Source: Minisyncoccota bacterium
GTDB taxonomy: Bacteria > Patescibacteriota > Minisyncoccia > Phycocordibacterales > UBA2100
Reading direction: 5' to 3'
DNA: 64,000 bases
NCBI GenBank assembly: GCA_035708165.1
Contig: DASSSZ010000006.1
Span: 179-64,178 of the forward strand
In this document: piece by piece, positions 3,885 through 61,330 of the stretch
How positions within the stretch are numbered: the first letter of the stretch is position 1
Layout: every line of letters starts with the position of its first letter
The notes under the pieces: generated by a model
What the model saw: only the letters and a program-made list of their open reading frames with translations
Database searches by the model: none
What the model was told of the DNA's origin: nothing
Program-made: the position numbers and the translations under genes

Positions 3885-4028
3885 TTAGACGGTGGTCAGC
3901 TTAGCGCGACCCTTGCGGCGCCGGCGGGCGAGCACCTGCTTGCCTGCCGTCGTCGAGGAGCGCTTGAGGAAGCCGTGTGTCCGGTTCCGCTTACGGACCT
4001 TCGGCTGGTACGTTCGTTTCGTAGCCAT
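3885..4028 (-). CDS. rpmH: 50S ribosomal protein L34
   Basis: Hand translation of the minus strand gives [47 protein letters not shown]. It is under 60 aa, so it is absent from the ORF track. Confidence 0.9.
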
Positions 4029-4235
4029 ATGCGCGCATCATACCGTATTATTCAAGTATTTCAAGCTGTTTCGAAGTCTTGGGAAAGGGGGATACCGAGG
4101 GTGGGGATAATGGTACACTTATCAACATGTTATCCACAGGAGTGTTTATTTTCAGCCATGCTGGATTGAAAAATAAGCCTCATTCCTCAGTGGGCTATAA
4201 TTCTGTGCATATCCGATTCATCCTATGTTGTGCGC
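4029..4235. promoter_or_regulatory. rpmH/dnaA divergent intergenic region with DnaA boxes (oriC-associated, dnaA promoter region)
   Basis: Perfect TTATCCACA at 4130..4138, plus near-matches cTTATCAACa at 4119..4128 and GGGGATAAT at 4103..4111. The region is AT-rich relative to the flanks. Confidence 0.5.
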
Positions 4236-5597
4236 ATGACTGAACGGGAACTCTGGCAGAACGCCTTGGTGCAGATCGAGCTCGGCACCTCAGAAGCGAG
4301 CTTCCAGACGTGGTTCCGCGGGACTGATATCGCGCGCCGGGAGGGGGGTTCGGTATTCGTTGCCGTCCCGTCAAAGATCGTAAAGGAGTGGCTTCGTGAG
4401 AAGCACCATAAGCTCATCCTGAAGACGCTGCGCGATCTTGATGAGACGATCCGATCAGTCGAATACGTCGTGCAGAAGAACGCTCGGGTCGCCGCGACGA
4501 CCGGCAAGCAGGCGCCGATCACGGATACCGGCGCAAGCACGATGGCGACCCTCGGGCTCAACGAGTACTACATCGATAAGCGGGATAACCTCAATCCGCG
4601 CTATACATTCGAGTCATTCATCGTCGGCCCCTTCAATCAGATGGCGCATGCAGCCGCGCAAGCGGTCATTCAGAAGCCTGGATTGTCATATAATCCCTTG
4701 TTTTTCTACGGATCGACCGGCCACGGAAAGACGCACCTGATCCAGGCGATCGGAAATTACTTCAAGAAGACGAATTCGAACCGGAAGGTCTTCTACGCGA
4801 CAGCCGAACGGTTCACGATCGATTACTTCAACGCATTGCGCGACGGGCGCGCGAATTCCTTCAAGGACCAGTACCGCCAGTACGACGTCCTCATCATGGA
4901 TGATATCCAGTTCATCGCGAACAAGGAGAAGACGCAGGAGGAGCTCTTCCACCTTTTCAATGCCTTCCATGACAATAACAAGCAGATCATCTTCTCATCG
5001 GATAAGCATCCGAATTTCGTGCCGGATTTCGAGGATCGCCTGAAGAGCCGCTTCAATGCAGGGCTCATCATCGAGATCCCACAGCCAGACCTCGAATCGC
5101 GCATCTCGATCATCACCGCGAAGGCGAACCAGTACGGCTACGCCATGCCGCACGAGACGATCGAATACATCGCGCAGCATGTGAACGGCAACATCCGCGA
5201 GCTCGAAGGGGTACTCAACGCGATCATCGTCAAGGCGCAGCTCAAAGGAAAATCGCTCAACCAAGCCGAATTGCATGGTATCCTGAAGAATACGGCACGG
5301 CCGGCGAAAGGCTTCTCTGTCGAGGATGTCGTCAAGAAAGTCGCGCAATACTACAAGATCGATGAGAAGAGCATCTACGAAAAGACGCGCAAGAAGGAGG
5401 TGGTGAAGCCGCGGCAGATCATCATGTACGTGCTGCGGGAGGAATTCAATGTCTCCTACCCTTCGATCGGGGAGAAGCTCGGCGGTCGCGACCACACGAC
5501 CGTGATCCACTCCTGTGAGAAGATAAAGGAAGACCTGAAGGGGAATAGTGCGCTCGAATCTGAGATCGATCAGATCAAGATGCTCATACACGGGTGA
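4236..5597 (+). CDS. dnaA: Chromosomal replication initiator protein DnaA
   Basis: AAA+ Walker A GSTGHGKTHL, the DnaA signature IGNY.., and a C-terminal DNA-binding helix (GGRDHTTVIHSCEKI). The ORF track starts at GTG 4230; the first ATG is 4236. Confidence 0.95.
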   Translation: MTERELWQNALVQIELGTSEASFQTWFRGTDIARREGGSVFVAVPSKIVKEWLREKHHKLILKTLRDLDETIRSVEYVVQKNARVAATTGKQAPITDTGASTMATLGLNEYYIDKRDNLNPRYTFESFIVGPFNQMAHAAAQAVIQKPGLSYNPLFFYGSTGHGKTHLIQAIGNYFKKTNSNRKVFYATAERFTIDYFNALRDGRANSFKDQYRQYDVLIMDDIQFIANKEKTQEELFHLFNAFHDNNKQIIFSSDKHPNFVPDFEDRLKSRFNAGLIIEIPQPDLESRISIITAKANQYGYAMPHETIEYIAQHVNGNIRELEGVLNAIIVKAQLKGKSLNQAELHGILKNTARPAKGFSVEDVVKKVAQYYKIDEKSIYEKTRKKEVVKPRQIIMYVLREEFNVSYPSIGEKLGGRDHTTVIHSCEKIKEDLKGNSALESEIDQIKMLIHG

Positions 5598-5849
5598 ATT
5601 TGCTGTGGATAGCGCGAGGGAAAACCTATGGGAAAGCATGCGGAAAACCACTCGAATAACAGCTCGCGAACGGGGATAACCAGAACGGCAGTTCGCTTAT
5701 CCCCAGCCCTATCCCCGCTTTCCACTCGGTAATCCCCAGCTCCATAAACAAATCATGAAGCGAGAATCCGAGATATCAAGCCGAGTTTGCTGTTTTTCCC
5801 CGTATCCACACCCCTAATAGTAGTTATAGTAGTTTTTAATAAAACCTTT
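5598..5849. promoter_or_regulatory. Candidate oriC core: dnaA-dnaN intergenic region with DnaA boxes and an AT-rich unwinding element
   Basis: gTATCCACA at 5802..5810 and TGTGGATAg at 5604..5612 (reverse-orientation box). Further matches are cTTATCCCC near 5697 and GGGGATAAC near 5670. An AT-rich stretch (taatagtagttatagtagtttttaataaaacc) lies at 5815..5846. Confidence 0.6.
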
Positions 5850-6947
5850 ATGAAAACCAGCTGCACACAGGAACGATTGAGAGCCGCGGTGGATATCGCT
5901 GAACGTGTCGTCGGCAAGAAGGAGTCGCTGCCGGTACTCTCATGCATCCTGCTCGAAGCGAAAGGAAAGGCTCTCTATGTGCGTGCGACGAATCTCGAGA
6001 CCGGCATCGAGATCGCTGTGCCGGCTGAGGTCATGCAGGAGGGGGTCGTGGCGGTCCCTGTCGGCGTGTTCTCGCATACGGTACGTACTAGCCGTGCTGA
6101 GAAGATCGAACTCTCACTCGATGGGCAGAATCTCTCCATCCGTTCGCCGCATGGCGAGACGACCTTGCGGACCATCGCTCATGACGAATTCCCCTCGATC
6201 CCGAAGGAGACCGAGGGAGATGCCTACCAACTTTCGCCGAAAGCTCTTCTCGACGGCATCAGTGCCGTCGCTTACGCGGCTTCGCAATCGATGATCCGCC
6301 CTGAGCTCGCGAGCATCCTCATAACAGCGCAGGATGGTACGCTCACGTTCGCCGCGACGGATTCCTTCCGTCTGGCGGAGAAGCGCATTCCGGCGCGCGC
6401 CGCTTCCATCCCTGACACGCTCTTGCCAGTGAAGAATGCGCTTGAGCTCACGCATGTGCTCAGTGCGCTCCCGGATGAGCCGATCGAGTGCCGATTCAGC
6501 GACTCCCAACTATCCGTCACGGCCGGCACTATCTATTTCATGTCCCGTATCGTGGATGCGACCTTCCCGCAGTACCAGGCCATCATCCCGAAGGAATTCA
6601 TGACCGAAGCGGTCCTCCTCAAGGAGGATCTCAACACCACCATGAAGAAGGCGCGCATCTTCTCTGCCGGAACGCAGCAGATCGGCTTCCATGTATACCC
6701 ATCGAAGAAATCATTCACAGCGACCGCCCGGACTGCGGATATCGGCGAGACGAGCGATAGCATCGATGCAGCGCTCGAAGGGAGCGATCTCGATATCAAC
6801 TTCAACCTGCAGTATCTCTCGGACTGTTTCAGCTCGATACGCGCGGACAGCGTCTCGCTCCAGTTCGGCGGGCTCGGCAAGGCGTTGGTGATCAAAGGCG
6901 TCTCCGACCCCACATTCCTCTATCTAGTGATGCCGCTCAACCGATAA
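5850..6947 (+). CDS. dnaN: DNA polymerase III beta sliding clamp
   Basis: 365 aa from the ATG at 5850. The ORF track starts at TTG 5787 with a hydrophobic non-native leader. It has the three-domain clamp architecture and the canonical position after dnaA. Confidence 0.93.
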   Translation: MKTSCTQERLRAAVDIAERVVGKKESLPVLSCILLEAKGKALYVRATNLETGIEIAVPAEVMQEGVVAVPVGVFSHTVRTSRAEKIELSLDGQNLSIRSPHGETTLRTIAHDEFPSIPKETEGDAYQLSPKALLDGISAVAYAASQSMIRPELASILITAQDGTLTFAATDSFRLAEKRIPARAASIPDTLLPVKNALELTHVLSALPDEPIECRFSDSQLSVTAGTIYFMSRIVDATFPQYQAIIPKEFMTEAVLLKEDLNTTMKKARIFSAGTQQIGFHVYPSKKSFTATARTADIGETSDSIDAALEGSDLDINFNLQYLSDCFSSIRADSVSLQFGGLGKALVIKGVSDPTFLYLVMPLNR

Positions 6948-7019
6948 GGCAAACCACTCTCATCGTGAGCGTAACGGCGGCCTATGGGCCGCCTAGCGCG
7001 TTCTAGAGGGGTGGCCGCT

Positions 7020-9449
7020 CTATGGATGCGTCGAGAAATTGACGGTCTGCGAGCTGACGCCGAATGAGCCGTTCGCGACGATCTCCAAGGATTGCGGGCC
7101 GAGCGTCGTCGGAGTGATTGACATCTCGAGCTGTCCGCCAGCTGCCGTACTGACGAGCGCACCATTGAGATAGGACGAGAACGAGGTGATCGTGACGCCA
7201 TTCGCCGGCTGGATCCGTATCGAGACCGCCTGATTGACCGGAACGGCGCTTCCAGGGCCCGGCGAGACGATTCTGAATGGCCCGTTTAGCGTGACCGCGG
7301 CTGAGGAGGACGCATACCCCTGCGCGGCTGCCCAGATGCGGATCGGGTACTCCCAGTTCGCATACTGCGGATCGGTGACCGAGGTGCCCGGCGCGCTGCC
7401 TGCGAGCGGCGTGTTCGGGTTGAGCCAATAGAGGATCGAGTGGAGCTGGCCGTCAGGGCCGGGGATGTCCCACTGCCCGCGGATGATCGGCGGAGCGTTC
7501 GCGGGTGTCGGATCGGGCTTGATGAACTGCCCTGCCGGGTACTTCTCGATAGCGTACTGCATGATGTCATGCCACATCGGTGCCACGATGAATCCGGCGA
7601 TCTTCTTGGCCATCGGGGTATTGTCGTTATTGCCCGCCCATGAGCCGACGACGATCGAAGGCGTGTAGCCGATGATCCAGGCATCCCGCGAGTCGTTCGT
7701 GGTGCCGGTCTTATCAGCGACATCGAAGCCGGGGAAGTTGAGCGGCGAATCCGTGCCGAATTCCGGCGTACGCGCGACGTTATCAGAGAGGACGTCGCTG
7801 ATCTGCCGCGCTACCTGCTCATCGAGCACGCGCGTGGACTGGTCCTGGTATTTCTCGAGGACGTTCCCGTTCGCATCATCCACCTCGAGGATCGCCGTCG
7901 CCTGGTGATGGATGCCATCCGTCGCGAAGCCGCCGTATGCGCTCACCATGTCGAGCAAAGTCACTTCGCCGCCGCCCAGCGTGAGCGTGAGCCCGTAGCG
8001 CGCCGCATCGCCGAGGGTCGTGATCCCCATCCGCTGCGCGGTCGCGAGCGCGTCATTGATGCCGACGAGGTACAGGAGCTTCACGGCGACGACGTTCACG
8101 GATTGCGCGAGCGCATCGCGCAGGCTCATCGGGCCGCTGAAGAGGCTGTCGTAGTTGTCAGGCGAGTAGCATGTATCCGTGGTCTCGAGGTCGTCCGGCG
8201 CGCAATTCGCCGCGAACTGGGTCTTGAGGTTGAAGAGGACGGTATCCGGCGAGTAACCCTTCGCGAACGCTGTCGCGTATACGAACGGCTTGAATGTCGA
8301 GCCTGGCTGGCGGTGCGCCAAGGCATCGTTGTACTTGCCGTCGATCGTATCGCTGAAGTAGTCGCTCGATCCGACCATGGCGAGGATCTGCCCGGTATTC
8401 GGATCGATCGCGACCGTCGCGGCATTGCTCGCATTGAATTCCTTGAGGTTGCTCGCGGCATACTGCTTCTCGACATCCTCCGCCTTCTTCTCGAGGTCGT
8501 AGTCGAGCGTGGTGATGACCCTGAGGCCGTTCTGATCCACCGCATCGGCACCATACTTCTGCTCGAGGTATTGCAGGACGTACATCACGAAGTGCGGCGC
8601 CTTGATGCCGGAATCGCTCTCCTGGATGAAGGTGACGTTCTCGTTCTGCGCCTGATCGCGCTCAGCCGCGGTGATGTATCCCTGCTCATACATGCGCTCG
8701 AGGACAGTGTTCTTCCGAGCATCCAAGGCGTCCTTATTGTTGCCGTACGGAGAGTAGTAGGTCGGCGCCTGCGGGAGGGCAGCGAGGTACGCGGCTTGCG
8801 CGAGGTCGAGATCCTTGGCGTGGACGCCGAAGAAGTATTCGCTGGCTTCCTCGATGCCGTAGATAGTGCCGCCGTACGGCGTCTCGTTGAAGTAGACGTC
8901 GAGGATCTGGTTCTTGCTGTAGGTCTGGTCGAGCTTGATGGCGAGCACCCACTCCTTCAGCTTGCGCGGGATCGTCTTCGAGCTCGTGAGGATAGTGTTC
9001 TTCACCACCTGCTGCGTGATCGTGGAACCGCCCTGGCTGAAGGAAAGCGTCGTGACGTCCACCCAGATGGCGCGCAGGATCGCCTTCAGCTCGATGCCGT
9101 TATCGGTATAGAAATTCGGGTCCTCGATCGCGATCGCGGCATGCTGCACGTACGGGGAGATCTGGTCGAGCGTGACGTCGGTGCGGCGGATGCTGCCGTG
9201 CACGTCATAGAGGAGGACCTTGCCGGTTCGGTCGTAGATCTTCGTGGATTGCGGGACGCGGCGTGTCTCGAAATCGTTGATATCAGGGATGGGCGTGGTG
9301 ACGAACCAGAAGAGCAGCACGCCCGCAAGGAAGAACCCGAGAATGAGAATCCCCAGGATGATCTCATAGAGGAGGGGAATCCTGTGGAAAAACCCCTTCT
9401 GAGAACGATTTCGCGGCCTATTCCTGAGCTTTCTGAAGAACGAGGGCAT
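7020..9449 (-). CDS. Class A penicillin-binding protein (PBP1A-type, bifunctional glycosyltransferase/transpeptidase) with a C-terminal beta-rich extension
   Basis: N-terminal TM, then GT51 motifs (EDPNFYTDNGIE, GGSTITQQV.KN), then the transpeptidase SxxK/SxN/KTG region (..STFKPF.., KTGTTND). About 200 aa of extra C-terminal Ser/Thr-rich repeats follow. Confidence 0.9.
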   Translation of the reverse strand: MPSFFRKLRNRPRNRSQKGFFHRIPLLYEIILGILILGFFLAGVLLFWFVTTPIPDINDFETRRVPQSTKIYDRTGKVLLYDVHGSIRRTDVTLDQISPYVQHAAIAIEDPNFYTDNGIELKAILRAIWVDVTTLSFSQGGSTITQQVVKNTILTSSKTIPRKLKEWVLAIKLDQTYSKNQILDVYFNETPYGGTIYGIEEASEYFFGVHAKDLDLAQAAYLAALPQAPTYYSPYGNNKDALDARKNTVLERMYEQGYITAAERDQAQNENVTFIQESDSGIKAPHFVMYVLQYLEQKYGADAVDQNGLRVITTLDYDLEKKAEDVEKQYAASNLKEFNASNAATVAIDPNTGQILAMVGSSDYFSDTIDGKYNDALAHRQPGSTFKPFVYATAFAKGYSPDTVLFNLKTQFAANCAPDDLETTDTCYSPDNYDSLFSGPMSLRDALAQSVNVVAVKLLYLVGINDALATAQRMGITTLGDAARYGLTLTLGGGEVTLLDMVSAYGGFATDGIHHQATAILEVDDANGNVLEKYQDQSTRVLDEQVARQISDVLSDNVARTPEFGTDSPLNFPGFDVADKTGTTNDSRDAWIIGYTPSIVVGSWAGNNDNTPMAKKIAGFIVAPMWHDIMQYAIEKYPAGQFIKPDPTPANAPPIIRGQWDIPGPDGQLHSILYWLNPNTPLAGSAPGTSVTDPQYANWEYPIRIWAAAQGYASSSAAVTLNGPFRIVSPGPGSAVPVNQAVSIRIQPANGVTITSFSSYLNGALVSTAAGGQLEMSITPTTLGPQSLEIVANGSFGVSSQTVNFSTHP

Positions 9450-10645: not shown

Positions 10646-10730
10646 ACGGCGGCAGTATAGCGCGTCCGCCCCGGCTGTTCAAAACCGCTGGGTATGAGAC
10701 ACTGGCGGTATTAGCCTAGCCGAAACTCCT

Positions 10731-11003
10731 ATGGAATTCGATTTCAATGCCGTCCCCGAGAAGGTTTTCGTCGACACCGTGCACCTGCGCGTCATCAACG
10801 GTCTCCTGCATGTCGTGCTGCGCTCGGGCGACGCGATGGACTGCTATCTCCTGCCGCTGCCGTTGGCGAAGCTCATGGGCAAAGGCATCATGGCGCAGGT
10901 CGAGGAGATCGAGAAGAAGCACAATATCTCGTTCGACGAGCAGATCCCTGAAGGCGCCCAGATCTCGCCGTGGACGATCGATTCGGAAGAAGGAGGCAAG
11001 TAG
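10731..11003 (+). CDS. Small acidic hypothetical protein (about 90 aa), possibly DUF3467-like; likely co-transcribed with the downstream RM gene
   Basis: The ORF ends 20 nt before the RM gene start on the same strand. No recognisable catalytic motif. The family assignment is from memory only. Confidence 0.3.
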   Translation: MEFDFNAVPEKVFVDTVHLRVINGLLHVVLRSGDAMDCYLLPLPLAKLMGKGIMAQVEEIEKKHNISFDEQIPEGAQISPWTIDSEEGGK

Positions 11004-11023
11004 AGTGAAGGCCGCATGGAACT

Positions 11024-14000
11024 GTGGCACTATGGGCCCATATGGCCACTCTCGAGGACGCGATCGCGCGGTATGTCGCCGCGCTCGATGAGCAATACCA
11101 GACCGGGATCGCCATCGAGCATGCGTACCGCCCGGCGCTCAAGGCGCTCCTCGGCGAGATCATCCCCGGAACCACGCCGGTCAACGATCCGAAGCACTCC
11201 GAGCATGGCGCGCCGGACTTCGCCATCGTCCGCGGCAAGATCCCGCTCGGCTACGCGGAGGCCAAGGACATCGGCATCGATCTTGATGCGGTGGTGAAGT
11301 CCGACCAGATGCGCCGCTACTTCGGCTATAAGAACCTAATTCTCACGGACTATCTCGAGTTCCGCTTCTATCGCGATGGCGCGCAATACGAGGAATCGAT
11401 CACCGTGGCGAAGGTTTCGGATGGCAGGATCGTGCCGGTCGACACGACGGCGAAGCTCGCGCACGTCACGCTCGAGCTCATGGAAGGCGCACCGGAGCCG
11501 ATCCGGAGCGCGAACCGGCTGGCGGAGATCATGGGCGGCAAGGCACGACGCATCCGCGACAATGTCATCCGGTATCTCGAGGGCGATAGTGAGCGCAACC
11601 GGGAGTTCCGCCAGATGCTCGAGGTGTTCCGCGATCGGCTCGTGCACACGATCACGCCTGCGCAATTCGCGGACATGTATGCGCAGACCTTGGTGTATGG
11701 GCTCTTCGCGGCGCGCTACGCCGACCGGACGCCAGACAATTTCTCGCGACAGGAGGCGCGCGATCTCGTGCCGCACAGCAATCCGCTCCTGCGCGAGTTC
11801 TTCGATCATATCGCCGGCGCGGGCTTCGACGAGCGTCTCACTATCATCGTGGATGAGCTTTGTGAGGTCTTCACGCATGCCGCCGTGCATGAGCTCATCG
11901 AGCGCGCGTACCGGCAGGACGCGAAGATCGGCGAGACGAAGGAATCGCGCGACCCGATCATCCACTTCTACGAGGACTTCCTCAAGGAGTACGACCCGGC
12001 GCAGCGCGTCCAGCTCGGCGTCTTCTACACGCCGCCCGCGGTGGTCTCATTCATCGTGCGCAGCATCGATCGCATCCTGCAGGAGCGCTTCGCGCTTCCG
12101 CGCGGGCTCGCGGACGAGAGCATGATCGAGGCGAAGCTCCCGACGCAAGGGATCGACAAGCGCACGAAAGGCGAGGTCAAATACGAGACGCGGCAGGTGC
12201 ACCGCGTGGAGATCCTCGACCCGGCGACCGGCACCGGTACCTTCCTCAATCAGGTCATCCGGCACATCCACGCCGCGTACTTCGAAGGCAATGAAGGCGC
12301 ATGGCAGCCGTACGTCTCGGCGCACCTCCTGCCGCGGCTCTTCGGCTTCGAGCTCCTGATGGCCAGCTACACCATCGCGCACCTCAAACTCGCGATGACG
12401 CTCGCGGAGACCGGCTATACGGACGAGCGCACGCGCCTCGGCATCTATCTCACGAACACGCTCGATGAGCCGATCGACACGATTCCGCGGCTCGCCTTCG
12501 GGCTCGATCAGGCGATCACCGACGAGGCGTACCAGGCTTCGCGCATCAAGAAGGACCTGCCGATCATGGTCGTCTTAGGGAATCCGCCATATAGCGGCAT
12601 CTCATCCAACCCGCAGTACAGGGGCAATGCCGACTATAAGAAGGAGCCAGGCACGAATGAGAAGCTGAACGAGCGCAAGAACTGGCTCGACGACGATTAC
12701 GTGAAGTTCATCCACTTCGCCGAATCGCTCATCCGCAAGAACGGCGAGGGCATTGTCGGGATGATCACGGCGCATGGCTATCTCGACAACCCGACCTTCC
12801 GCGGCATGCGCTACCGCCTGCTCGAGACCTTCGACGAGATCTACGTGCTTGACCTGCACGGCAATGCCAATAAGAAGGAGAAGGCAGCGGATGGGACCAA
12901 GGATGAGAACGTCTTCGATATCAAGACCGGCACGGCGATCCTGCTCGGCATAAGAGGAAAGAAGGAGGGGAAGGGAGAAAGGAAGGAGCTCGCTGATGTC
13001 TACCATGCGGAGATGCTCGGCACGCGCCTCTCCAAATACGAGCGGCTGAATCAGAGCGACTGGGCAAGTGTGAGCTGGCAGAAGCTCGAGCCCGCGCACG
13101 ACAGGTACTACTTCGTGCCGGTCGCAGAGGGCGACGACGAGTACGAGCAGGGCATTGCAGTGAACGATATCTTCGATGTAGGCGTGACCGGGATCGTGAC
13201 AGCGCGCGATAGCGTCGTGATCGATACTGACAAGGATGTGCTCCGGGCGCGCATCGATATGTTCTGCGACCCCGAGCTTTCGGATGATGAGGTGCGCCGG
13301 AAGCTCTTCCCGGGGAAGAAGGACGGTAAGTATAAGGCAGGCGATACGCGCGGCTGGAAGCTCGATGCGGCTCGCAAGAAGATCCGCGACAAGGACCATG
13401 ATGCCGCGATCAAGCCGATCGCATACCGGCCATTCGATACGCGGTGGGTGTACTACGATCCGGACATGGTCGATTGGGGGAGGGAGAAAATAATGAACAG
13501 GATTCTTAAGGGTAAGAATTTGTATCTTGTCGTACATAAGCGAGAGGAATTGAAGATTCCTTTCGCCCATGCGCTTGTTACCGACCTAATGACAGAGCAC
13601 GGTGTTACTTCCGGGAAAACGACCAATTATCAATTTCCTCTCTATCTTTATCCTGAGCAGCAAACGACCGACGACACCCGGCGCACGCCGAACCTGAAGA
13701 CGGATGCAATCAAACAGTTCGAAGACGCGACAGATCTCGCATTCGAACCAGAAAACTGCGGGGGGGGGGCGACTATATGTCCATACGACATTCTCGATTA
13801 CATCTACGCCGTCCTCTACTCGCCCAGCTACCGGGCCAAATACGGCGAGTTCCTCAAGCGCGACTTCCCGCGCGTGCCGCTCCCCTCGAGCGCCGAGCAG
13901 TTCCGCGCGCTTGCTGGGAAGGGAAGCGAGCTGCGGCAGCTGCATCTCCTCACGCATCCGGTGCTCGCGAGGCCGGTCGCGACATTCCCTGTCCTGGGCG

Positions 14001-14266
14001 ACAGTGTCGTGGGCGCGAAGTTCCCGACCTTCGAGAATGGTCGCGTGCGCATCAATGACACGCAGTACTTCGACGGCATCCCGAAGGAAGTCTGGGAGTT
14101 CTATATCGGCGGCTATCAGCCCGCGCAGAAATGGCTCAAGGACCGCCGCGGCCGCACCCTCACCTACGATGACATCGAGCACTACCGCCGCTTCACCACC
14201 GCGCTCCAGGAGACAATCCGGGTGATGGGCGATGTGGATAGCATCCTAGCTTCATCTGGGAACTGA
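11024..14266 (+). CDS. Single-polypeptide Type IIL/IIG restriction-modification enzyme (MmeI-family-like: N-terminal PD-(D/E)xK nuclease + gamma-class N6-adenine MTase + C-terminal specificity domain)
   Basis: N-terminal ..PDFAIVRGKIPLGYAEAKDIGIDLD.. and ..LILTDYLEFRFY.. align to the MmeI D..EXK nuclease and its following strand. MTase motif I is DPATGTGTFL and motif IV is VLGNPPYSG. The C-terminal ..YIGGYQPAQKWLKDRRGRTLTYDDI.. is typical of type IIG/ISP/PglX TRD-coupler regions. Confidence 0.8.
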   Translation: MALWAHMATLEDAIARYVAALDEQYQTGIAIEHAYRPALKALLGEIIPGTTPVNDPKHSEHGAPDFAIVRGKIPLGYAEAKDIGIDLDAVVKSDQMRRYFGYKNLILTDYLEFRFYRDGAQYEESITVAKVSDGRIVPVDTTAKLAHVTLELMEGAPEPIRSANRLAEIMGGKARRIRDNVIRYLEGDSERNREFRQMLEVFRDRLVHTITPAQFADMYAQTLVYGLFAARYADRTPDNFSRQEARDLVPHSNPLLREFFDHIAGAGFDERLTIIVDELCEVFTHAAVHELIERAYRQDAKIGETKESRDPIIHFYEDFLKEYDPAQRVQLGVFYTPPAVVSFIVRSIDRILQERFALPRGLADESMIEAKLPTQGIDKRTKGEVKYETRQVHRVEILDPATGTGTFLNQVIRHIHAAYFEGNEGAWQPYVSAHLLPRLFGFELLMASYTIAHLKLAMTLAETGYTDERTRLGIYLTNTLDEPIDTIPRLAFGLDQAITDEAYQASRIKKDLPIMVVLGNPPYSGISSNPQYRGNADYKKEPGTNEKLNERKNWLDDDYVKFIHFAESLIRKNGEGIVGMITAHGYLDNPTFRGMRYRLLETFDEIYVLDLHGNANKKEKAADGTKDENVFDIKTGTAILLGIRGKKEGKGERKELADVYHAEMLGTRLSKYERLNQSDWASVSWQKLEPAHDRYYFVPVAEGDDEYEQGIAVNDIFDVGVTGIVTARDSVVIDTDKDVLRARIDMFCDPELSDDEVRRKLFPGKKDGKYKAGDTRGWKLDAARKKIRDKDHDAAIKPIAYRPFDTRWVYYDPDMVDWGREKIMNRILKGKNLYLVVHKREELKIPFAHALVTDLMTEHGVTSGKTTNYQFPLYLYPEQQTTDDTRRTPNLKTDAIKQFEDATDLAFEPENCGGGATICPYDILDYIYAVLYSPSYRAKYGEFLKRDFPRVPLPSSAEQFRALAGKGSELRQLHLLTHPVLARPVATFPVLGDSVVGAKFPTFENGRVRINDTQYFDGIPKEVWEFYIGGYQPAQKWLKDRRGRTLTYDDIEHYRRFTTALQETIRVMGDVDSILASSGN

Positions 14267-14277
14267 TGTGAAAATGC

Positions 14278-14340
14278 GGATGTCCCGCGGAGCGGGACAT
14301 CCAAATGGGGAACTGGCCGAAAGGTCAGTTTCTGTTTTTG
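14278..14340 (+). terminator. Hairpins plus a U-tract downstream of the RM gene (candidate rho-independent terminator)
   Basis: A 25-nt perfect palindrome ggatgtcccgcggagcgggacatcc lies at 14278..14302. A second hairpin ctggccgaaaggtcag at 14313..14328 is followed by tttctgtttttg. Confidence 0.45.
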
Positions 14341-14493
14341 CGCTTTGGGGCGCGTTGTGAGAGGGCACTACCAGCCGCTTTCTTCGAATCCCGGCCTGTA
14401 CGTCCATCTCGAAGAACTCGGCTCGCTGCCTTGCCAGCACTTCTCCCGGTGTGTCGCTGTTGTGCCATGCGAACTCAGATTATTCCAATAATC

Positions 14494-14559
14494 CTCGGGT
14501 TACCCGAGTTACGAGTATTCTCTCATGCGTACATCACGTGTCAAATGTAAATACATTTG
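14494..14559. promoter_or_regulatory. Palindromic operator candidates in the AT-rich promoter region of the TA operon
   Basis: Perfect 7-1-7 inverted repeat ctcgggt-t-acccgag at 14494..14508. Perfect 8-2-8 inverted repeat caaatgta-aa-tacatttg at 14542..14559, abutting the antitoxin start region. Confidence 0.45.
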
Positions 14560-14592
14560 CACAGGAGTGGACTTCCTGTGGATAAGTATGCT

Positions 14593-15318
14593 ATGAATAT
14601 ACCTATGGATATACAGAAACTTCGGAAAGAGCATGGTATGACCCAGGCGGATCTTGCAAACCGCCTCGGGATGTCACGGCCGACGCTGATCCGTATCGAG
14701 AAGGGTGAACGGCCGTTGACTGCACGCGAGGGGCACGAACTCCGCATGCTTTTCGGTATGCTCGATTCGGATGCTGCCGAGCGCGAGCAGTTCGACGATG
14801 TGCGCATCAGCATCCCCCAGAAGAATCTCGAGAAATTCAAGCAGGTACTGCTCTATGTCTTGAAGCAGGCCGGTGCCAAGCCGAATATCGGCATGACCGC
14901 ACTCTACAAACTGCTCTACTTCATCGATTTCGACTATTACGAGAAGTACGGGACGCAGCTGATGGGCCTGACCTATTTCAAGAACACGCATGGGCCAGCG
15001 CCGCGCGAGTTCATCAAGGTGGTGAATGAGATGAAGGAAAAGAAGGAGGTGGATGAAGTGAAAAGTAAGTACTTCACATATGAGCAACGCAAGTTCTTGC
15101 CGCTCATCGAGCCAGACCTGGCTATCCTGAGTGCGCGCGAGAAGGAGATGATCGACAATGTGCTGCTGCGGTACTCGGATAAGTCCGCATCAGAACTCTC
15201 ACGCCTTTCGCATATTGATACGCCATGGGATGTCGCGAAGGATGGCGAAGACCTTGATTATGAGCATGTGTTCTATCGGCCGGCCGAGCTCTCGGTGCGC
15301 GAGTACGATGAGCTCTAA
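14593..15318 (+). CDS. Antitoxin candidate: N-terminal XRE-type HTH fused to a Panacea (DUF4065, SocA/GepA-like) domain
   Basis: HTH region ..MTQADLANRLGMSRPTLIRIEKGERPLT..; Panacea-like core ..ALYKLLYFIDFDYYEKYGTQLMGLTYFKNTHGPAP... The ORF track starts at TTG 14557; in-frame ATGs are at 14593 and 14605. The stop overlaps the next start (TAATG). Confidence 0.6.
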   Translation: MNIPMDIQKLRKEHGMTQADLANRLGMSRPTLIRIEKGERPLTAREGHELRMLFGMLDSDAAEREQFDDVRISIPQKNLEKFKQVLLYVLKQAGAKPNIGMTALYKLLYFIDFDYYEKYGTQLMGLTYFKNTHGPAPREFIKVVNEMKEKKEVDEVKSKYFTYEQRKFLPLIEPDLAILSAREKEMIDNVLLRYSDKSASELSRLSHIDTPWDVAKDGEDLDYEHVFYRPAELSVREYDEL

Positions 15319-15686
15319 TGCGGCCGTGTATGGAATTCGCCGAACTGCCGGAATTTTCCCGAGAACTGAAATCCCTGAAGAAGAAATATAAGTCGCTCGA
15401 GGGCGACTTGGAAACGCAGCGGGACGTGTTGCAGACCAGGCCGGAAGGAACTGGTGGTAAACACTGGATTTGCCTGCACCAGAACGACGAATTCTCGATA
15501 TGGAAGACGAGGCTCGCATGCAAGACGCTTAAGGGGGACAAGATGCGCGTGATCTATGCATTCATTTTCAGTAGTGCACGGATCGAGTACGTAGAGATTT
15601 ATTTCAAGGGAGACAAACCCAACGAGGACCGCGAGCGCGTAGCGGCCTATATAAAAGAAACGAAGAAGCGGCTAGGGCTAGACTAG
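15318..15686 (+). CDS. Toxin candidate, RelE/ParE-superfamily (HigB/Gp49-like) mRNA-interferase-type protein
   Basis: 122 aa; the alternative ATG at 15330 gives MEFAELPEF... The C-terminus ..RVIYAFIFSSARIEYVEIYFKGDKPNEDRERVAAYIKETKKRL resembles the Gp49/HigB family tail. The gene is translationally coupled to the upstream HTH-Panacea gene. Confidence 0.45.
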   Translation: MRPCMEFAELPEFSRELKSLKKKYKSLEGDLETQRDVLQTRPEGTGGKHWICLHQNDEFSIWKTRLACKTLKGDKMRVIYAFIFSSARIEYVEIYFKGDKPNEDRERVAAYIKETKKRLGLD

Positions 15687-16694
15687 CTTCGTCTGGAGGT
15701 CCTCCGGCATGTCGAAGCCGAGGTGGGCGTAGGCGGCGGGGGTGGCGATGCGGCCGCGCGGCGTCCGTTCGAGGAAACCGATCTGCATGAGGTACGGCTC
15801 ATGCACCTCTTCGATCGTGCTCTGCTCCTCCGAGAGCGCGGCACCGAGGGTCCCGAGGCCGACCGGCCCGCCGCGGTATTTCCCGATGATCGCGGAGAGG
15901 ATATCGCGGTCGCTCTGCGTGAGGCCTTGCTCGTCGATCTCAAGCAGCGCGAGGGCTTTTGAAGCCATCTGCGCGTCCATCGCGCCGCCATGCACCTGCG
16001 CGTAATCGCGGCAGCGCTTGAGGAGGTAGTTCGCCGTGCGCGGCGTGAAGCGGCTGCGCTTCGCGATCTCCGCGCGGGCGTCGGCAGGCAGGGAGAGCCC
16101 GAGGATGGCCGCCGAGCGCTCGAGGATCCGCTCGATCTCGGCGGGCGTGTAATAGATGAGGCGGAACGTGCCGCCAGAGAAGCGGGAGCGCAAGGGCGCC
16201 GAGAGGAGCGAGATGCGCGTCGTCGCCGCGATCAGGGTGAACGCCGGCAGCTCGAGCTGCACCGTGCGGGCCGACGGGCCCTTGCCGATCACGATATCGA
16301 GGACGCCCGATTCCATCGCGGGGTAGAGGACTTCCTCGATCGTCTTATTGAGGCGGTGGATCTCGTCGATGAAGAGGATATCGCCCGGCGAGAGGTTCGT
16401 GAGGATGCTCGCGAGGTCGCCCACGCGCTCGATCGCGGGACCGGAGGTCGCGCGCAGCTGCGAGCCCATCTCGCGGGTGATGAGGTGCGCGAGCGTCGTC
16501 TTGCCGAGCCCCGGCGGCCCGTAGAGGAGCACGTGCTCCGGCTGCTGGCCGCGCTCCTTCGCCGCCGTGAGCAGGATCGCGAGATTCTTCTTGATGGATT
16601 CCTGGCCGATATACTCGTCCCACTGCGCCGGGCGCAGCGCTTGGTCCAGCGATTTCGCGTTCTCCGGGGGGATCGTGGGTTCGGTATCGGTCAT
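15678..16694 (-). CDS. ruvB: Holliday junction branch-migration ATPase RuvB
   Basis: LLYGPPGLGKTTLA Walker A, sensor motifs and the winged-helix C-terminus. The ATG at 16694 (MTDTEPT..) is the likely start. The ORF track extends to 16760 by in-frame read-through. Confidence 0.93.
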   Translation of the reverse strand: MTDTEPTIPPENAKSLDQALRPAQWDEYIGQESIKKNLAILLTAAKERGQQPEHVLLYGPPGLGKTTLAHLITREMGSQLRATSGPAIERVGDLASILTNLSPGDILFIDEIHRLNKTIEEVLYPAMESGVLDIVIGKGPSARTVQLELPAFTLIAATTRISLLSAPLRSRFSGGTFRLIYYTPAEIERILERSAAILGLSLPADARAEIAKRSRFTPRTANYLLKRCRDYAQVHGGAMDAQMASKALALLEIDEQGLTQSDRDILSAIIGKYRGGPVGLGTLGAALSEEQSTIEEVHEPYLMQIGFLERTPRGRIATPAAYAHLGFDMPEDLQTKLV

Positions 16695-17107: not shown

Positions 17108-18775
17108 TCAGGCGTTGAGGTCGATGACGCGGCCGAGCTCGTCGAGGGAGGTGATGCCGCGCAGGACCTTCACCATGCCGTCCTGCGCCATCGAGCGGAT
17201 CTCCTGGTGCTTCGCGCCTTCCCAGATCTCGCGCTCGGTCGGGTTCTTGCGGAGGAGCTCTTCGATAGTGCGATCCATGACGATCGCCTCGACGATGGCG
17301 ATGCGTCCCTTATAGCCGATCCCCCCGCATTCTTCGCAGCCGGTCGCGGTCCACATGATGTCGCGGTTCCTGGGCGTGTCTTCCGGGTGGGGGATGTCAG
17401 CCATCAGGCGCTCCACGATATCCCGGTCCGTGCCGGCGATCGGCGTCGCGGCACGGCAGTGCGTGCACAGCTTGCGCACGAGGCGCTGCGCCATGGCGAT
17501 GTTGATCGAGGAGCCGAGGACTTCCGCCTCGATGCCGAAGTCGATGAGGCGCGGGAACGTGCCGGCGGCATCGTTCGTGTGCAGCGTGGAGAAGACGAGG
17601 TGGCCGGTGAGCGCGGCCTGCACGGCGGTCGTCGCCACTTCAGCGTCACGGATCTCGCCGACCATGATCACGTCCGGGTCCTGGCGCAGCGTCGAGCGCA
17701 ATCCCTGCGCGAACGAATAGTCCTTCGAGACCTGCGTCTGCACGATGCCTTCGAGGTGGTACTCGACCGGGTCTTCGATCGTGACGACCTTGTTCTCGGA
17801 CGAGTGCACCGCCGTCAGGAACGCGTAGAGCGTGGTCGTCTTGCCGGAGCCGGTCGGGCCGGTGTTGAGGATCATGCCGTTCGGCTTCTGGATCTCATGA
17901 GTGATGATGTCCATGAAGTAGGAATCGAAGCCGAGCTCCGGCATCGAGAGCGCGATCGTGGTCGGGTCGAGGATGCGCATCACGATGGTCTCCGCGTAGT
18001 TGCCCGGCAGGACCGAGGTGCGGATCTCGATCTCCTTATCGTTCACGATGATCGAGAGCCGCCCGTCCTGCGCGATGTCCTTGAGGTTGAGCTTGAGGCC
18101 GGAGAGCAGCTTGATGCGCGCGGCGACGAGCTCGTACGTCGCGTGGTCGAACTGCAGCACCTCATGGAGCACGCCGTCGAGACGGTAGCGCATGCGCACG
18201 AACGATTCCTCAGGCTCGAGATGCACGTCGGATGCGCCGAGCGAGAGCGCGCCTGCCATGATGACTTCGAGCACGTGCGAGATGCGGTGCGAATCCGTGC
18301 CCGCGATGTAGCGCTCCGCCTGCTCCTTCACGGAGTCGATCGAGTTGATCTCGTTGATCAGCTTCTGGATGGTCTCCTGCGAGATCGTAAGCACGCCCGC
18401 CTCGCTCTCGGTCGAGTAGGAGATGTCCTTATAGCGGTCCCACGCGCGCTCGAGAGATGCGCGTGAGACGATGAATCGGACGATGGAGTAGCCGAGCCGC
18501 TCGATCGACTGCAGCACGGCGAGCGAGTCCTGCCGCTCAGGCGCGCGCATCGCGACGAACACCTTCTTGCCGATCTTGCGGAAGAATGCGAGCTCGGCTT
18601 TCCGCGCGACATCCTCCGGCACGAGCGAGAGCGCATCAGCGTCGATCGAAGTGCGGGTGAGGTCGGTGTAGTCGATGCCGTATTTCTGCGAGAGCATCTG
18701 CGCGAGCTCCTCCTCCTCCTGGCCGCGGAGGTCATCGAGGCGGTCTTCCTGCTTCTTCTCGTCGAACTCGATCAT
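17108..18775 (-). CDS. pilB: Type IV pilus assembly ATPase PilB (GspE-family secretion ATPase)
   Basis: N1/N2 GSPII domains, Walker A GPTGSGKTTT, Asp/His boxes and the tetracysteine CTHC..CEEC zinc motif. The ATG at 18775 (MIEFDEKKQ..) is the start. The ORF-track extension to 19438 overlaps tsaE on the other strand and is not coding. Confidence 0.9.
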   Translation of the reverse strand: MIEFDEKKQEDRLDDLRGQEEEELAQMLSQKYGIDYTDLTRTSIDADALSLVPEDVARKAELAFFRKIGKKVFVAMRAPERQDSLAVLQSIERLGYSIVRFIVSRASLERAWDRYKDISYSTESEAGVLTISQETIQKLINEINSIDSVKEQAERYIAGTDSHRISHVLEVIMAGALSLGASDVHLEPEESFVRMRYRLDGVLHEVLQFDHATYELVAARIKLLSGLKLNLKDIAQDGRLSIIVNDKEIEIRTSVLPGNYAETIVMRILDPTTIALSMPELGFDSYFMDIITHEIQKPNGMILNTGPTGSGKTTTLYAFLTAVHSSENKVVTIEDPVEYHLEGIVQTQVSKDYSFAQGLRSTLRQDPDVIMVGEIRDAEVATTAVQAALTGHLVFSTLHTNDAAGTFPRLIDFGIEAEVLGSSINIAMAQRLVRKLCTHCRAATPIAGTDRDIVERLMADIPHPEDTPRNRDIMWTATGCEECGGIGYKGRIAIVEAIVMDRTIEELLRKNPTEREIWEGAKHQEIRSMAQDGMVKVLRGITSLDELGRVIDLNA

Positions 18776-18841
18776 GTTCCTATTGTATACGACCAGCGCT
18801 CGAAGGCCGCGGCCGGATGGGCAAAATGCTACAATTCCCCC

Positions 18842-19309
18842 ATGGCTGCAGGCGATGCGGACAGCGACGTGGTCACGAAGGACGAGCTCGAGGCGGAAGC
18901 CGCGCGGCTTGCCGATGAGGTGCGCAGAGCGGCTCCCGCAGGGCACGCGGCAGTGATCGCGCTTTCGGGCGATCTCGGCAGCGGCAAGACGACCTTCGCA
19001 CAGGCGTTCGCGCGAGCGCTCGGCATCGAGGCGCATGTGACCAGCCCGACGTTCGTCATCGAGAAGCGCTACCCCGTGCCGCAGGCGGGCAAGCACGCGT
19101 TCCGCACGTTCGTGCATGTCGATGCGTACCGCCTCGATGACCCGAAGGAGCTCGCGCAGCTCGGCTGGCACGGCACGATCGACGACCCGTCGAACATCGT
19201 CCTCATCGAGTGGGCGGACAAGGTGGCTTCCCTCCTGCCGGACGATGCGTATCGCATCGCGCTCGCGTTCCGCGACGAGCGCACGCGCACTCTCACCTAT
19301 GGCGACTAA
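18842..19309 (+). CDS. tsaE: tRNA threonylcarbamoyladenosine biosynthesis protein TsaE (YjeE)
   Basis: P-loop GDLGSGKTTFAQAFARALG and the SPTF.. motif; 155 aa. Confidence 0.85.
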   Translation: MAAGDADSDVVTKDELEAEAARLADEVRRAAPAGHAAVIALSGDLGSGKTTFAQAFARALGIEAHVTSPTFVIEKRYPVPQAGKHAFRTFVHVDAYRLDDPKELAQLGWHGTIDDPSNIVLIEWADKVASLLPDDAYRIALAFRDERTRTLTYGD

Positions 19310-21812
19310 GAAGACGGCACCGAAGGCGGCGAAGAACGCAGCGGCGAAACGCGCGCCGAAGCGCGTACCAACGACGAAGGATGCGTCCGCGAAGAAGCCT
19401 GCGCATGCGCTCGCGGGCGCGAAGCGCCCGCGGGTCATCCTCCTCGATTCTCACGCGATCATGCATCGCGCGTACCACGCGCTGCCGGAGTTCACTTCCG
19501 ACTCCGGCGAGCCGACGGGCGCCCTCTACGGGCTCGTCTCGATGCTGGTGAAGATGGTGCACGACCTCTCGCCCGAGTACATCATCGCGGCATACGACCT
19601 GCCGGGCGGCACCCACCGCCATGAGGTGTACGAGGAGTACAAGGGTACGCGCGGCCCGCTCGATGACGCGCTCGCGCGACAGCTCAACCGCGCACCCGAG
19701 GTGTACGAGGCATTCGGCATCCCGGCGATCGGCGTCAAAGGGTTCGAGGCGGATGACATCCTCGGCACGCTCGCGCACCGCCTGCGCGATACGACCGAAG
19801 CCGACGTCATCATCGCGACCGGCGATCACGACACGCTGCAGCTCGTAGATGATTCGCGCGTGCGCGTGTACACCTTGCGCAAGGGCCTTGCGGACACCGT
19901 GCTCTACGACGCGGATGCCGTGCGCGAACGCTACGGGTTCGGGCCGGAGCACATCGCCGATTACAAGGGGCTCGCCGGGGACCCGTCCGATAACATCAAG
20001 GGCGTGAAGGGGATCGGGCAGAAGAGCGCGACCGAGCTCATCGCCGCATTCGGGGGGATCGAGGATATCTACCGCGTGCTCGAGGCGCATCCCGAGCGGT
20101 TCGCCGAGGCGGGCATCAAGCCGCGCGTGCAGTCGCTCCTCATCGAAGGGAAGGACGATGCGATCTTCAGCAAGATGCTCGCGACCATCCGGACCGATGC
20201 GCCGGTCGTCTACGAACTGCCGAAGGAGACATGGCGCGAGAGTTTCGACGTATCCCGCGCGCTCACGCTCTGCGATGATCTCGGATTCCGCTCGCTCGGC
20301 GGCCGGGTGCGCTCGCTCACGCCCGGGATCGCATTCGACCGCGAGCAGGATGCCGCGGACGCGGACGCGGCCAGCGCGGATGATCCGCGCGAGCTCGCCG
20401 AGGCGAAGGTGATGCTCTGGCTCCTGCACTCCGATATGACGAACCCCGATCGCGAGGATGTCCTGCGCGCGACCAAGACGAAGACGCTCGGCGAGGCGCA
20501 CGCCGCGCTCCTGCAAAGCCTGCGCGCGACCGGCCGCCTCGCGCGCGTCTACGAAGAGATCGAGAAGCCGCTCATCCCGATCGTCCTCTCCATGCACGAG
20601 CTCGGGATCGTCGTCGACAGCGCGTATCTCGGCAGGCTCTCCTCGCGCTACCACGCCGAGCTCGAGACGATCGTTTCGCGCATCTATGAGCTCGCCGGCC
20701 ACGAGTTCAATCTCAACTCGCCGCGCCAGCTCGGCACGGTCCTCTTCGATGAGCTCGGGCTGGGGCAGGGGGGTGCCAAGAAGAAGACGGCGACCGGCCA
20801 GCGCTCGACGCGCGAGGACGAGCTCGCGAAGCTCGCCGGCGAGCACGAGATCATCGGCAAGATCCTCGAATACCGCGAGCTGCAGAAGCTGCTCTCGACC
20901 TACATCGACAACCTGCCCTCCATGGTCGCGGCGGACGGCCGGCTCCATGCGCGGTTCCTGCAGGAGGGCACGACGACCGGCCGCATGGCGAGCGCTGATC
21001 CCAACCTGCAGAACATCCCCACGAAGCCCGGCTACGGCAAGCCGATCCGCGATGCGTTCCGCGCGAGCGAAGGCTACCAGCTCGTCGCGATCGACTACTC
21101 GCAGATCGAGCTTCGGATCGCAGCAGGACTCTCCGGCGACGAACGGCTCATCGAGGTGTTCCGCGAGGGCGGCGATATCCATCGATCCGTCGCGTCGCGC
21201 GTGTTCGGCGTGCCGCCGGAGAATGTGGACGCTGAGATGCGCCGGCGTGCGAAGGTCATCAACTTCGGGATCCTCTACGGCATGGGCGTGAACGCCTTGC
21301 GCGCGAATCTCGGAGACGCGGTCTCGCGCGCGGACGCGGCAGCGTACCTCGCCGGCTACTTCGCGAACTACGCGGGCCTCGCGGCGTACATCGAGCGCGT
21401 GAAGGCCGACGCGGCCCGCCTCGGCTACACCGAGACGCTCTTCGGCAGGCGACGCAGCTTCGCCGGCTTCGACTCGCCGCTGCCGTACGTGCGTGCGGCA
21501 GCCGAGCGCATGGCGGTGAACGCGCCCATCCAGGGTACGCAGGCCGATATCATCAAGCTCGCGATGGTCCGTGCCGACCGGGCGCTCGCCGAGGAAGGCG
21601 CGTCCCTCGATGCGCGGCTCCTCTTGCAGGTGCACGACGAGCTCGTCTACGAGATCATGGACGCGCGCGTGCACGAGCTCGCGAAGCTGATCCGCGGCAT
21701 CATGGAGTCGGTCGCTCCCGAAGACGGCCTCTCAGGCGTTCCGATCATCGCCGAGGTCTCGGCCGGGAAGACCTGGGGATCGCTCTCGCGCATCGAGCGG
21801 AAGGATCTCTGA
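19299..21812 (+). CDS. polA: DNA polymerase I (5'-3' exonuclease + polymerase domains; no obvious intact 3'-5' proofreading motifs noted)
   Basis: ATG at 19299 (MATKKTAPK..), overlapping the tsaE stop by 11 nt. FEN-like N-terminus (LLDSHAIMHRAYHA..), polymerase motifs (..DYSQIELRI.., ..QVHDELV..). The ORF track start at 19116 is an over-extension. Confidence 0.95.
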   Translation: MATKKTAPKAAKNAAAKRAPKRVPTTKDASAKKPAHALAGAKRPRVILLDSHAIMHRAYHALPEFTSDSGEPTGALYGLVSMLVKMVHDLSPEYIIAAYDLPGGTHRHEVYEEYKGTRGPLDDALARQLNRAPEVYEAFGIPAIGVKGFEADDILGTLAHRLRDTTEADVIIATGDHDTLQLVDDSRVRVYTLRKGLADTVLYDADAVRERYGFGPEHIADYKGLAGDPSDNIKGVKGIGQKSATELIAAFGGIEDIYRVLEAHPERFAEAGIKPRVQSLLIEGKDDAIFSKMLATIRTDAPVVYELPKETWRESFDVSRALTLCDDLGFRSLGGRVRSLTPGIAFDREQDAADADAASADDPRELAEAKVMLWLLHSDMTNPDREDVLRATKTKTLGEAHAALLQSLRATGRLARVYEEIEKPLIPIVLSMHELGIVVDSAYLGRLSSRYHAELETIVSRIYELAGHEFNLNSPRQLGTVLFDELGLGQGGAKKKTATGQRSTREDELAKLAGEHEIIGKILEYRELQKLLSTYIDNLPSMVAADGRLHARFLQEGTTTGRMASADPNLQNIPTKPGYGKPIRDAFRASEGYQLVAIDYSQIELRIAAGLSGDERLIEVFREGGDIHRSVASRVFGVPPENVDAEMRRRAKVINFGILYGMGVNALRANLGDAVSRADAAAYLAGYFANYAGLAAYIERVKADAARLGYTETLFGRRRSFAGFDSPLPYVRAAAERMAVNAPIQGTQADIIKLAMVRADRALAEEGASLDARLLLQVHDELVYEIMDARVHELAKLIRGIMESVAPEDGLSGVPIIAEVSAGKTWGSLSRIERKDL

Positions 21813-24862: not shown

Positions 24863-24892
24863 GCATGCTACTGAGCATGCTCAGTAGCATGC
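24863..24892. repeat. Perfect 30-bp palindrome built from GCATGC units in the intergenic region
   Basis: gcatgctactgagcatgctcagtagcatgc equals its own reverse complement. It lies between the stop of the LTD-protein gene and the start of the small membrane protein gene. Confidence 0.6.
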
Positions 24893-49375: not shown

Positions 49376-49423
49376 CGGCAAACAGAATGCCCCGGCATGC
49401 ATGCCGGGGCATTCTGTTTGCCG
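49376..49423. repeat. Perfect 48-bp palindrome centred on GCATGCATGC immediately 3' of tRNA-Leu
   Basis: cggcaaacagaatgccccggcatgc|atgccggggcattctgtttgccg, with arms of 24 nt and a centre between 49399 and 49400. No U-tract on either side. Confidence 0.6.
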
Positions 49424-50195: not shown

Positions 50196-50317
50196 CCTGT
50201 CGGTACGAGCCGGATGCCTAGGCATCCGGCTCGTTTGCCGCAGGAGCGCGAGGGACTCGAGCGCCGCAGCCCCGTAAAGCGGGACGAGGCAGACGGCGAC
50301 GAACATCCGCGAGCGCA

Positions 50318-61273: not shown

Positions 61274-61330
61274 TGCGCATTGCCGCAGGCCCATGGGCCT
61301 GCGGCATTCCTTTTTGCTACAATCGATCGC

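Follow-up and report, generated by a model that had tools for sequence, protein, structure and literature searches.

A predicted DrdV-like restriction-modification gene and the small gene upstream of it in a Paceibacterota genome

Among the described single-chain restriction-modification (RM) enzymes, DrdV, the Type IIL enzyme of Deinococcus wulumuqiensis (PDB 7LO5/7LVV), comprises 1029 amino acids (aa) and carries, in order, a nuclease, a helical connector, a gamma-class N6-adenine methyltransferase (MTase) and a target-recognition domain (TRD) of the Type_ISP_C kind. The MmeI family, also of Type IIL (PMC2731913; PDB 5HR4), is built from an N-terminal PD-ExK nuclease, a gamma-class MTase and a C-terminal TRD, with no second MTase nearby. 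The Type ISP enzymes LlaBIII and LlaGI (PDB 4XQK, 5FFJ; 1406-1578 aa) have a superfamily 2 (SF2)/RecA-like ATPase motor between the nuclease and the MTase; the MTase and TRD modules of DrdV and of the Type ISP enzymes are of common origin, but the cleavage mechanisms differ (10.1101/2021.01.06.425610). Type II RM systems are also known with controller (C) proteins, dimers of the Xre-type helix-turn-helix (HTH) kind, which co-occur with RM genes and are encoded by a small gene directly upstream of the restriction gene on the same strand. Here, we analysed a 64,000-nucleotide (nt) stretch of contig DASSSZ010000006.1 from a Minisyncoccota bacterium, referred to below as the window, in which a predicted RM gene (11024..14266, + strand; 1080 aa from a GTG start) follows a small open reading frame (ORF; 10731..11003, + strand; 90 aa from an ATG start). 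NCBI holds both exact sequences on a 103-kb contig of a metagenome-assembled genome labelled 'Candidatus Paceibacterota bacterium', where the small ORF is named 'hypothetical protein' (P0001) and the large ORF 'type ISP restriction/modification enzyme' (P0006).

A first-pass annotation of the window, made from the sequence alone, had described the two ORFs as lying on one strand 20 nt apart, which is how we found them, and had read the small protein as a possible accessory factor of an MmeI-family enzyme. We consider it likely that the product of the large gene is a functional DrdV-like RM enzyme of Type IIL (IIG) and that the small gene is unrelated to it, the adjacency of the two being a matter of gene order.

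Domain organization and kinship of the large protein

The large protein is apparently an intact single-chain Type IIL/IIG RM enzyme in which a nuclease, a connector, an MTase and a Type_ISP_C TRD follow one another and from which an ATPase is missing; no helicase or ATPase match was found in Pfam. The N-terminal PD-(D/E)XK nuclease domain (11024..11440, + strand) was assigned from residue conservation, from HSDR_N matches in homologues and from an AlphaFold2 model of the protein (pLDDT 83, pTM 0.73), in which this domain was confidently predicted with an alpha/beta core. Its key residues are E32 (11117-11119), P64-D65 (11213-11218), E79-A-K81 (11258-11266) and Q95/R98/Y99, all on the + strand. 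When 120 homologues were aligned, E32, P64-D65, E79-x-K81, Q95 and R98-Y99 were conserved at 98-100%, so that the D/E/K residues on which the first-pass annotation had made its reading depend are kept in a proper alignment. In addition, three homologues (P0014, P0026 and P0047) exceeded the Pfam HSDR_N cut-off across the same N-terminal stretch.

The gamma-class N6-adenine MTase domain (12179..13123, + strand) was matched by the Pfam models N6_Mtase and Eco57I, and its motif I, DPATGTGTF (12218-12244, + strand), and motif IV, NPPY (12581-12592, + strand), were invariant in the family alignment (A3). The C-terminal TRD of the Type_ISP_C kind (13166..14227, + strand; residues 715-1068) matched Pfam PF18135 at 3e-84 and contains the segment YIGGYQPAQKWLKDRR (14102-14149, + strand), whose residues G, Y, K, L, K, D and R were invariant across 49 homologues. 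This family-wide conservation indicates that the segment belongs to the structural framework of the TRD and does not determine specificity. The motifs quoted in the first-pass annotation were thus found at the expected residues of the 1080-aa protein: PDF at aa 64-66, EAK at aa 79-81, DPATGTGTF at aa 399-407, NPPY at aa 520-523 and YIGGYQPAQKWLKDRR at aa 1027-1042. The profile searches that it had proposed for N6_Mtase and Type_ISP_C both returned matches, and its picture of a single chain of nuclease, MTase and TRD with intact gamma-class motifs and no separate MTase also stood, as Pfam revealed no second MTase among the neighbouring products (YebC, the small ORF, a HTH-Panacea protein, orf122 and RuvB). 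The PADLOC REase_MTase_IIG model PDLC03610 matched the RM protein at 2e-275. The family is large, with more than 7998 homologues at E<=1e-20, and is common in Patescibacteria.

The closest solved relative of the enzyme is DrdV, and MmeI is only a remote one. In a sequence search of the PDB, DrdV (7LO5) was retrieved at 3.6e-46, followed by LlaBIII (5e-35) and LlaGI (6.5e-30); a profile of 49 sequences gave the same order (1.4e-83, 1.8e-66 and 1.7e-64, respectively), and MmeI was retrieved by neither search. Foldseek, run on the AlphaFold2 model, likewise placed DrdV first (1e-40, over ~1180 alignment columns), then LlaBIII and LlaGI (about 1e-36 to 1e-32), with MmeI at 1e-11 and PglX/BrxX scoring about the same as MmeI. 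DrdV and the window enzyme have the same domain order and similar lengths (1029 aa versus 1074-1080 aa), and an ATPase is found in neither. However, the structural alignment shows just ~20% identity between them, the sequence match to DrdV begins at query residue 184 and leaves the first ~180 residues, including the nuclease domain, unaligned, and the recognition site of DrdV is not transferable to the window enzyme.

With the Type ISP enzymes, the likeness is confined to the homologous MTase and TRD parts: the alignment begins at LlaBIII residue ~750-900, and the ATPase motor of LlaBIII and LlaGI has no counterpart in the 1080-aa protein. Because this motor is missing, the NCBI name 'type ISP' is wrong, and the translocation-collision mechanism of Type ISP enzymes is impossible for the window enzyme. 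The first-pass assignment to the MmeI family held for the architecture, including the near-equal positions of the catalytic residues (D70/E80/K82 in MmeI and D65/E79/K81 in the window enzyme), but not for the family itself. The Foldseek match to MmeI had 11% identity, and the MmeI TRD belongs to a Pfam family other than Type_ISP_C. MmeI_Mtase reached 23.9 bits, short of its cut-off of 27, no match to MmeI_N, MmeI_hel, MmeI_TRD or MmeI_C was found in Pfam, and the N-terminal 380 aa were without any MmeI domain at E<=10. Judged from its sequence and modelled fold, the protein would therefore be classified as a DrdV-like Type IIL/IIG enzyme, and as neither an MmeI-family nor a Type ISP enzyme.

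The start of the RM gene is more probably the ATG at 11042 than the GTG at 11024. This ATG gives the 1074-aa protein of the NCBI annotation (P0006), and the first residues of the GTG-start version corresponded to gaps in at least 90% of the 120 homologues. As the N-termini of the homologues favour ATG 11042, the spacer between the two + strand genes is probably 38 nt, rather than the 20 nt that separate the small ORF from GTG 11024.

By homology with DrdV (10.1101/2021.01.06.425610) and MmeI (PMC2731913), we proposed that the Type_ISP_C-type TRD of the enzyme would recognize an asymmetric site, that its gamma-class MTase would use S-adenosylmethionine (SAM) to methylate one adenine on one strand, and that its N-terminal PD-(D/E)XK nuclease would need no ATP to cut at a fixed distance. 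If the enzyme behaves like DrdV, cleavage would require the assembly of several site-bound molecules, and no partner protein would be needed by the enzyme.

Gene neighbourhoods in other genomes

The accessory-factor reading supposes that the small gene and RM genes are linked, and we therefore compared the neighbourhoods of both genes in other genomes. The window RM, YebC, RuvB and RuvC proteins, among others, were used as tblastn queries against 17 other loci carrying homologues of the small ORF, with flanks of up to 5-6 kb. These loci represent 15-16 distinct places, as L023 and L007 share a contig and an overlap of L025 with L005 is probable. Homologues of RM, YebC and RuvB were absent from all 17 loci by tblastn. 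Instead, the small gene mostly had housekeeping genes for neighbours, and the order nrdA-nrdB-...-small ORF-...-800-aa membrane protein-MurJ was present, in whole or in part, in 11 of them (9 distinct places). The RNase P RNA adjoined the small gene at six loci (L004, L005, L007, L008, L009 and L024), in either orientation and at a distance of 48-680 nt, and the order common to these loci was nrdA-nrdB-...-small-rnpB-800-aa membrane protein-MurJ. The transfer-messenger RNA (tmRNA) was near the small gene at L003, L006 and L018, accompanied at L003 by smpB. No RNase P RNA was found in the 64-kb window.

Conversely, RM homologues with 48-53% identity to the window enzyme were found in six independent contexts (L010, L011, L013, L015, L029 and L030), which contained no member of the small family and shared no neighbour; the genes flanking these homologues did not constitute a conserved partner family. 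The recurrence of small-ORF homologues upstream of IIL/IIG enzymes, which the first-pass annotation had proposed to look for, was thus found nowhere, and the small family was never linked to RM genes in the other loci. Since such linkage is missing, the accessory-factor idea fails the test that the first-pass annotation itself had set: the small gene occurs at 17 other loci without an RM gene, and the RM gene in six contexts without the small gene. What had seemed an unusual pairing disappears once other genomes are compared, and the adjacency of the two genes appears, from these sequences, to be particular to this genome among the loci compared.

At five of the six RM-homologue loci, an uncharacterized gene on the same strand as the RM gene starts within ~15 nt of the RM stop codon or overlaps it (L011, 8157-8885; L013, 8110-9294; L015, 8130-8777; L029, 7135-7857; and L030, 7132-7299). 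BLASTP showed that these five genes are not homologous to one another. Defence-type genes nearby at the RM-homologue loci encode a Zeta toxin, a HEPN protein, a serine recombinase and a SNF2 helicase with DUF2779.

The small protein and its family

The product of the small ORF was unmatched in Pfam, NCBIfam and PADLOC, and in Pfam even at E<=10. A word-index search retrieved four homologues besides the product itself, with 48-63% identity, and an exhaustive HMMER search yielded 20 cluster representatives of the family, two of which are long multi-domain proteins with a partial match. The family was found at 7 genome loci and at 9 metagenome loci; the metagenome scan was performed with a 5-sequence alignment, the 23-sequence alignment being too divergent. 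Every named source belongs to the Patescibacteria, namely Kaiserbacteria, Paceibacterota and a single bin labelled Saccharibacteria. Residues G24, K47, E61 and P80 are invariant in the family, and the core reads VFVD..R(I/V)(I/L)NGL....QSG....F.LPLPLAK.......QVEEIEKK.G..F, followed by EP..SP. Of the description as a '90-aa conserved acidic protein', the conservation therefore held, but the acidity applies to the window copy (isoelectric point (pI) 4.73) and is not a family trait, as the pI ranges from 4.7 to 9.0.

AlphaFold2 gave a confident model of the small protein, with a mean pLDDT of 83 and 62 residues at >=90, in which three antiparallel strands lead into a long helix, a fold that resembled COMM or PUR domains when compared with PDB chains and that, in the model, is likely to dimerize. 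Neither an HTH (Pfam) nor a match to the PADLOC Control_protein models was found. The small gene thus shares with C-protein genes its size, its strand and its position directly upstream of a restriction gene, but differs from them in lacking an HTH and in having no RM gene at its 17 other loci. DUF3467 (PF11950, ~100 aa), suggested by the first-pass annotation as a family for the small ORF, is similar in size. However, it gave only a weak match in one of the 23 family members (E=0.0047) and none at E<=10 in the other 22 and the window protein, which points at best to a faint, remote relation. We know of no function for DUF3467. Our best guess is that the small gene belongs to a Patescibacteria-specific family with a housekeeping context and a function unrelated to restriction.

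The insertion between yebC and ruvB

Three relatives (L026, L027 and L028), whose YebC proteins are 74-82% identical to that of the window, share the order PolA-TsaE-GspE-RuvB-(MazG)-YebC-RuvC-PBP1A, with DnaN and DnaA beyond it in L026 and L028, the two that are long enough. In all three relatives, ruvB and yebC are contiguous or are parted just by a small mazG. The window has the same backbone, but in it yebC and ruvB are separated by a block of ~5 kb (10646-15690), made up of the small ORF, the RM gene, a gene for a HTH-Panacea protein and orf122, all in + orientation between minus-strand core genes. By this comparison, the ~5-kb block is a lineage-specific insertion. No convincing direct or inverted repeats bounding the insert were detected in a repeat search, and no integrase was found with Pfam. 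The GC content at third codon positions (GC3) was host-like (0.84-0.85) in the small ORF and in the RM gene over its first two thirds, but only 0.73 in the TRD part and 0.68-0.69 in the last two genes, and these differences suggest more than one acquisition event.

The last two genes form a putative toxin-antitoxin (TA) pair. The first (14557..15318, + strand) encodes a 253-aa protein with HTH and Panacea domains (SocA_Panacea, 3.1e-19; HTH_3, 4.8e-11), a putative PanA-type antitoxin; the second (15318..15686, + strand), the 122-aa orf122, overlaps it by 1 nt (TAATG), has no family match and may encode the cognate toxin. This layout, in which a small putative toxin gene is paired with the gene of an antitoxin carrying a Panacea domain, is that of the PanA TA systems (PMC8832971). 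At L010, the locus of the closest RM homologue, a Panacea gene and a 124-aa ORF (6732-7646) also lie beside the RM gene, and the 124-aa putative toxin is not homologous to orf122. Panacea is the sole neighbour that recurs beside RM homologues, in the window and at L010. The two pairs are in keeping with a clustering in defence islands and with Panacea antitoxins being known as promiscuous (PMC8832971).

At the junction of the small ORF and the RM gene, a consensus scan found no terminator-like site, in agreement with the first-pass annotation. The only strong + strand site of this kind in the scan was a hairpin with a T-run just past the RM stop codon (14308..14333, + strand; 11 pairs, tail GTTTTTGCGC). 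No + strand promoter was evident upstream of the small ORF or inside it before the RM start, and the RNA fold of the junction was no more stable than that of shuffled sequence (z = +0.30). The two genes may be co-transcribed. We proposed that their juxtaposition arose inside the lineage-specific ~5-kb insertion between yebC and ruvB and that read-through from the small gene may transcribe the RM gene, which would be a by-product of gene order and not a sign of partnership.

Several observations weigh against a functional enzyme beside an unrelated small gene. The two genes lie in the same inserted block, on the same strand and 20-38 nt apart, with no terminator or promoter between them, so that both co-transcription and co-acquisition are possible. 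The 26-nt near-palindrome GTGGCACTATGGGCCCATATGGCCAC at 11024-11049, which occurs once in the window and spans both candidate starts of the RM gene (GTG 11024 and ATG 11042), may serve as an operator or may have arisen by chance. Finally, the numbers of RM contexts (6) and small-ORF loci (17) are modest compared with the more than 7998 RM homologues.

The operator was set aside, as palindromes are frequent in the window and evidence of conservation was absent; the RNA folding of the near-palindrome was not exceptional. Palindromes without a spacer that matched at 11 or more of 13 arm positions numbered 18 in the window versus ~3 in Markov simulations, and four of them were perfect 26-mers (examples of the palindromes lie at 24865-24890, 49387-49412, 50207-50232 and 61281-61306). 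Most of the 18 are probably terminators, several being GC-rich hairpins followed by T-runs.

Of the rival explanations, the one that survives best is that the small ORF, the RM gene and the TA pair were acquired jointly as one mobile island. The small ORF would then be cargo of the island, either relocated or xenologous, and not a gene already resident when the RM gene inserted beside it. In favour of such an island, the relatives lack the 5-kb block entirely at the ruvB-yebC position, and its four genes are in + orientation between minus-strand core genes. However, we regard it as unlikely, because the variation of GC3 inside the block suggests more than one origin, flanking repeats and an integrase are missing, and the homologues of the small ORF elsewhere reside in core-gene neighbourhoods. 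That the large protein is a relic, either decayed or left with methyltransferase function only, like some YeeA-type MmeI homologues, appears quite improbable: the window protein itself reaches no Pfam nuclease model, but its reading frame is full length, the family-invariant residues of the nuclease (E, PD, ExK, Q, RY) and of the MTase (motif I, NPPY) are kept, and the structural model is confident over the nuclease domain.

Two further readings grant the small protein a role in restriction. A housekeeping-type small protein might have been captured into an operon with the DrdV-like enzyme in this Paceibacterota lineage and might now modulate it, for instance by blocking the nuclease until methylation is in place; we consider this very improbable, and a functional partnership of the two genes specific to this lineage is hardly to be expected. 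Despite the C-protein-like position of its gene, it is highly improbable that the small protein is a dedicated co-transcribed accessory that controls expression, inhibits or chaperones the nuclease, or acts in an anti-restriction-like way, given that the RM gene was present at 0 of the 17 other small-ORF loci and the small gene in 0 of the 6 RM contexts, that the small protein has no HTH or PADLOC control-protein match, that MmeI-type (PMC2731913) and DrdV-type (10.1101/2021.01.06.425610) enzymes act alone, and that palindromes such as the one at the junction are common in the window and the junction RNA fold is unremarkable.

Two features lie outside the insertion. The ORF of the GspE/T2SSE-like ATPase (17108-19438, - strand; 776 aa) has an implausible N-terminal extension of ~200 aa overlapping tsaE on the other strand; the GspE-like proteins of the relatives are 557-564 aa long, indicating that the real start of the window ORF lies further downstream. 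The GC content at 4001-6000, just upstream of dnaN, was 0.53 versus a window mean of 0.65, and this stretch may be an AT-richer replication-origin region, as the relatives have dnaA-dnaN there.

A functional DrdV-like enzyme beside an unrelated small gene would be one more member of a very large and already annotated single-chain RM family, and as such it matters little. The analysis nevertheless yielded a corrected, DrdV-like family assignment, a clear 5-kb defence insert (RM and Panacea TA) in a conserved core cluster that also holds dnaA and dnaN, and an uncharacterized Patescibacteria-specific small family without a Pfam model that recurs beside RNase P RNA and tmRNA genes. As a weaker alternative to the captured modulator of the enzyme, the members of this small family might be stable-RNA-associated factors specific to Patescibacteria, which, if true, would be interesting in its own right.

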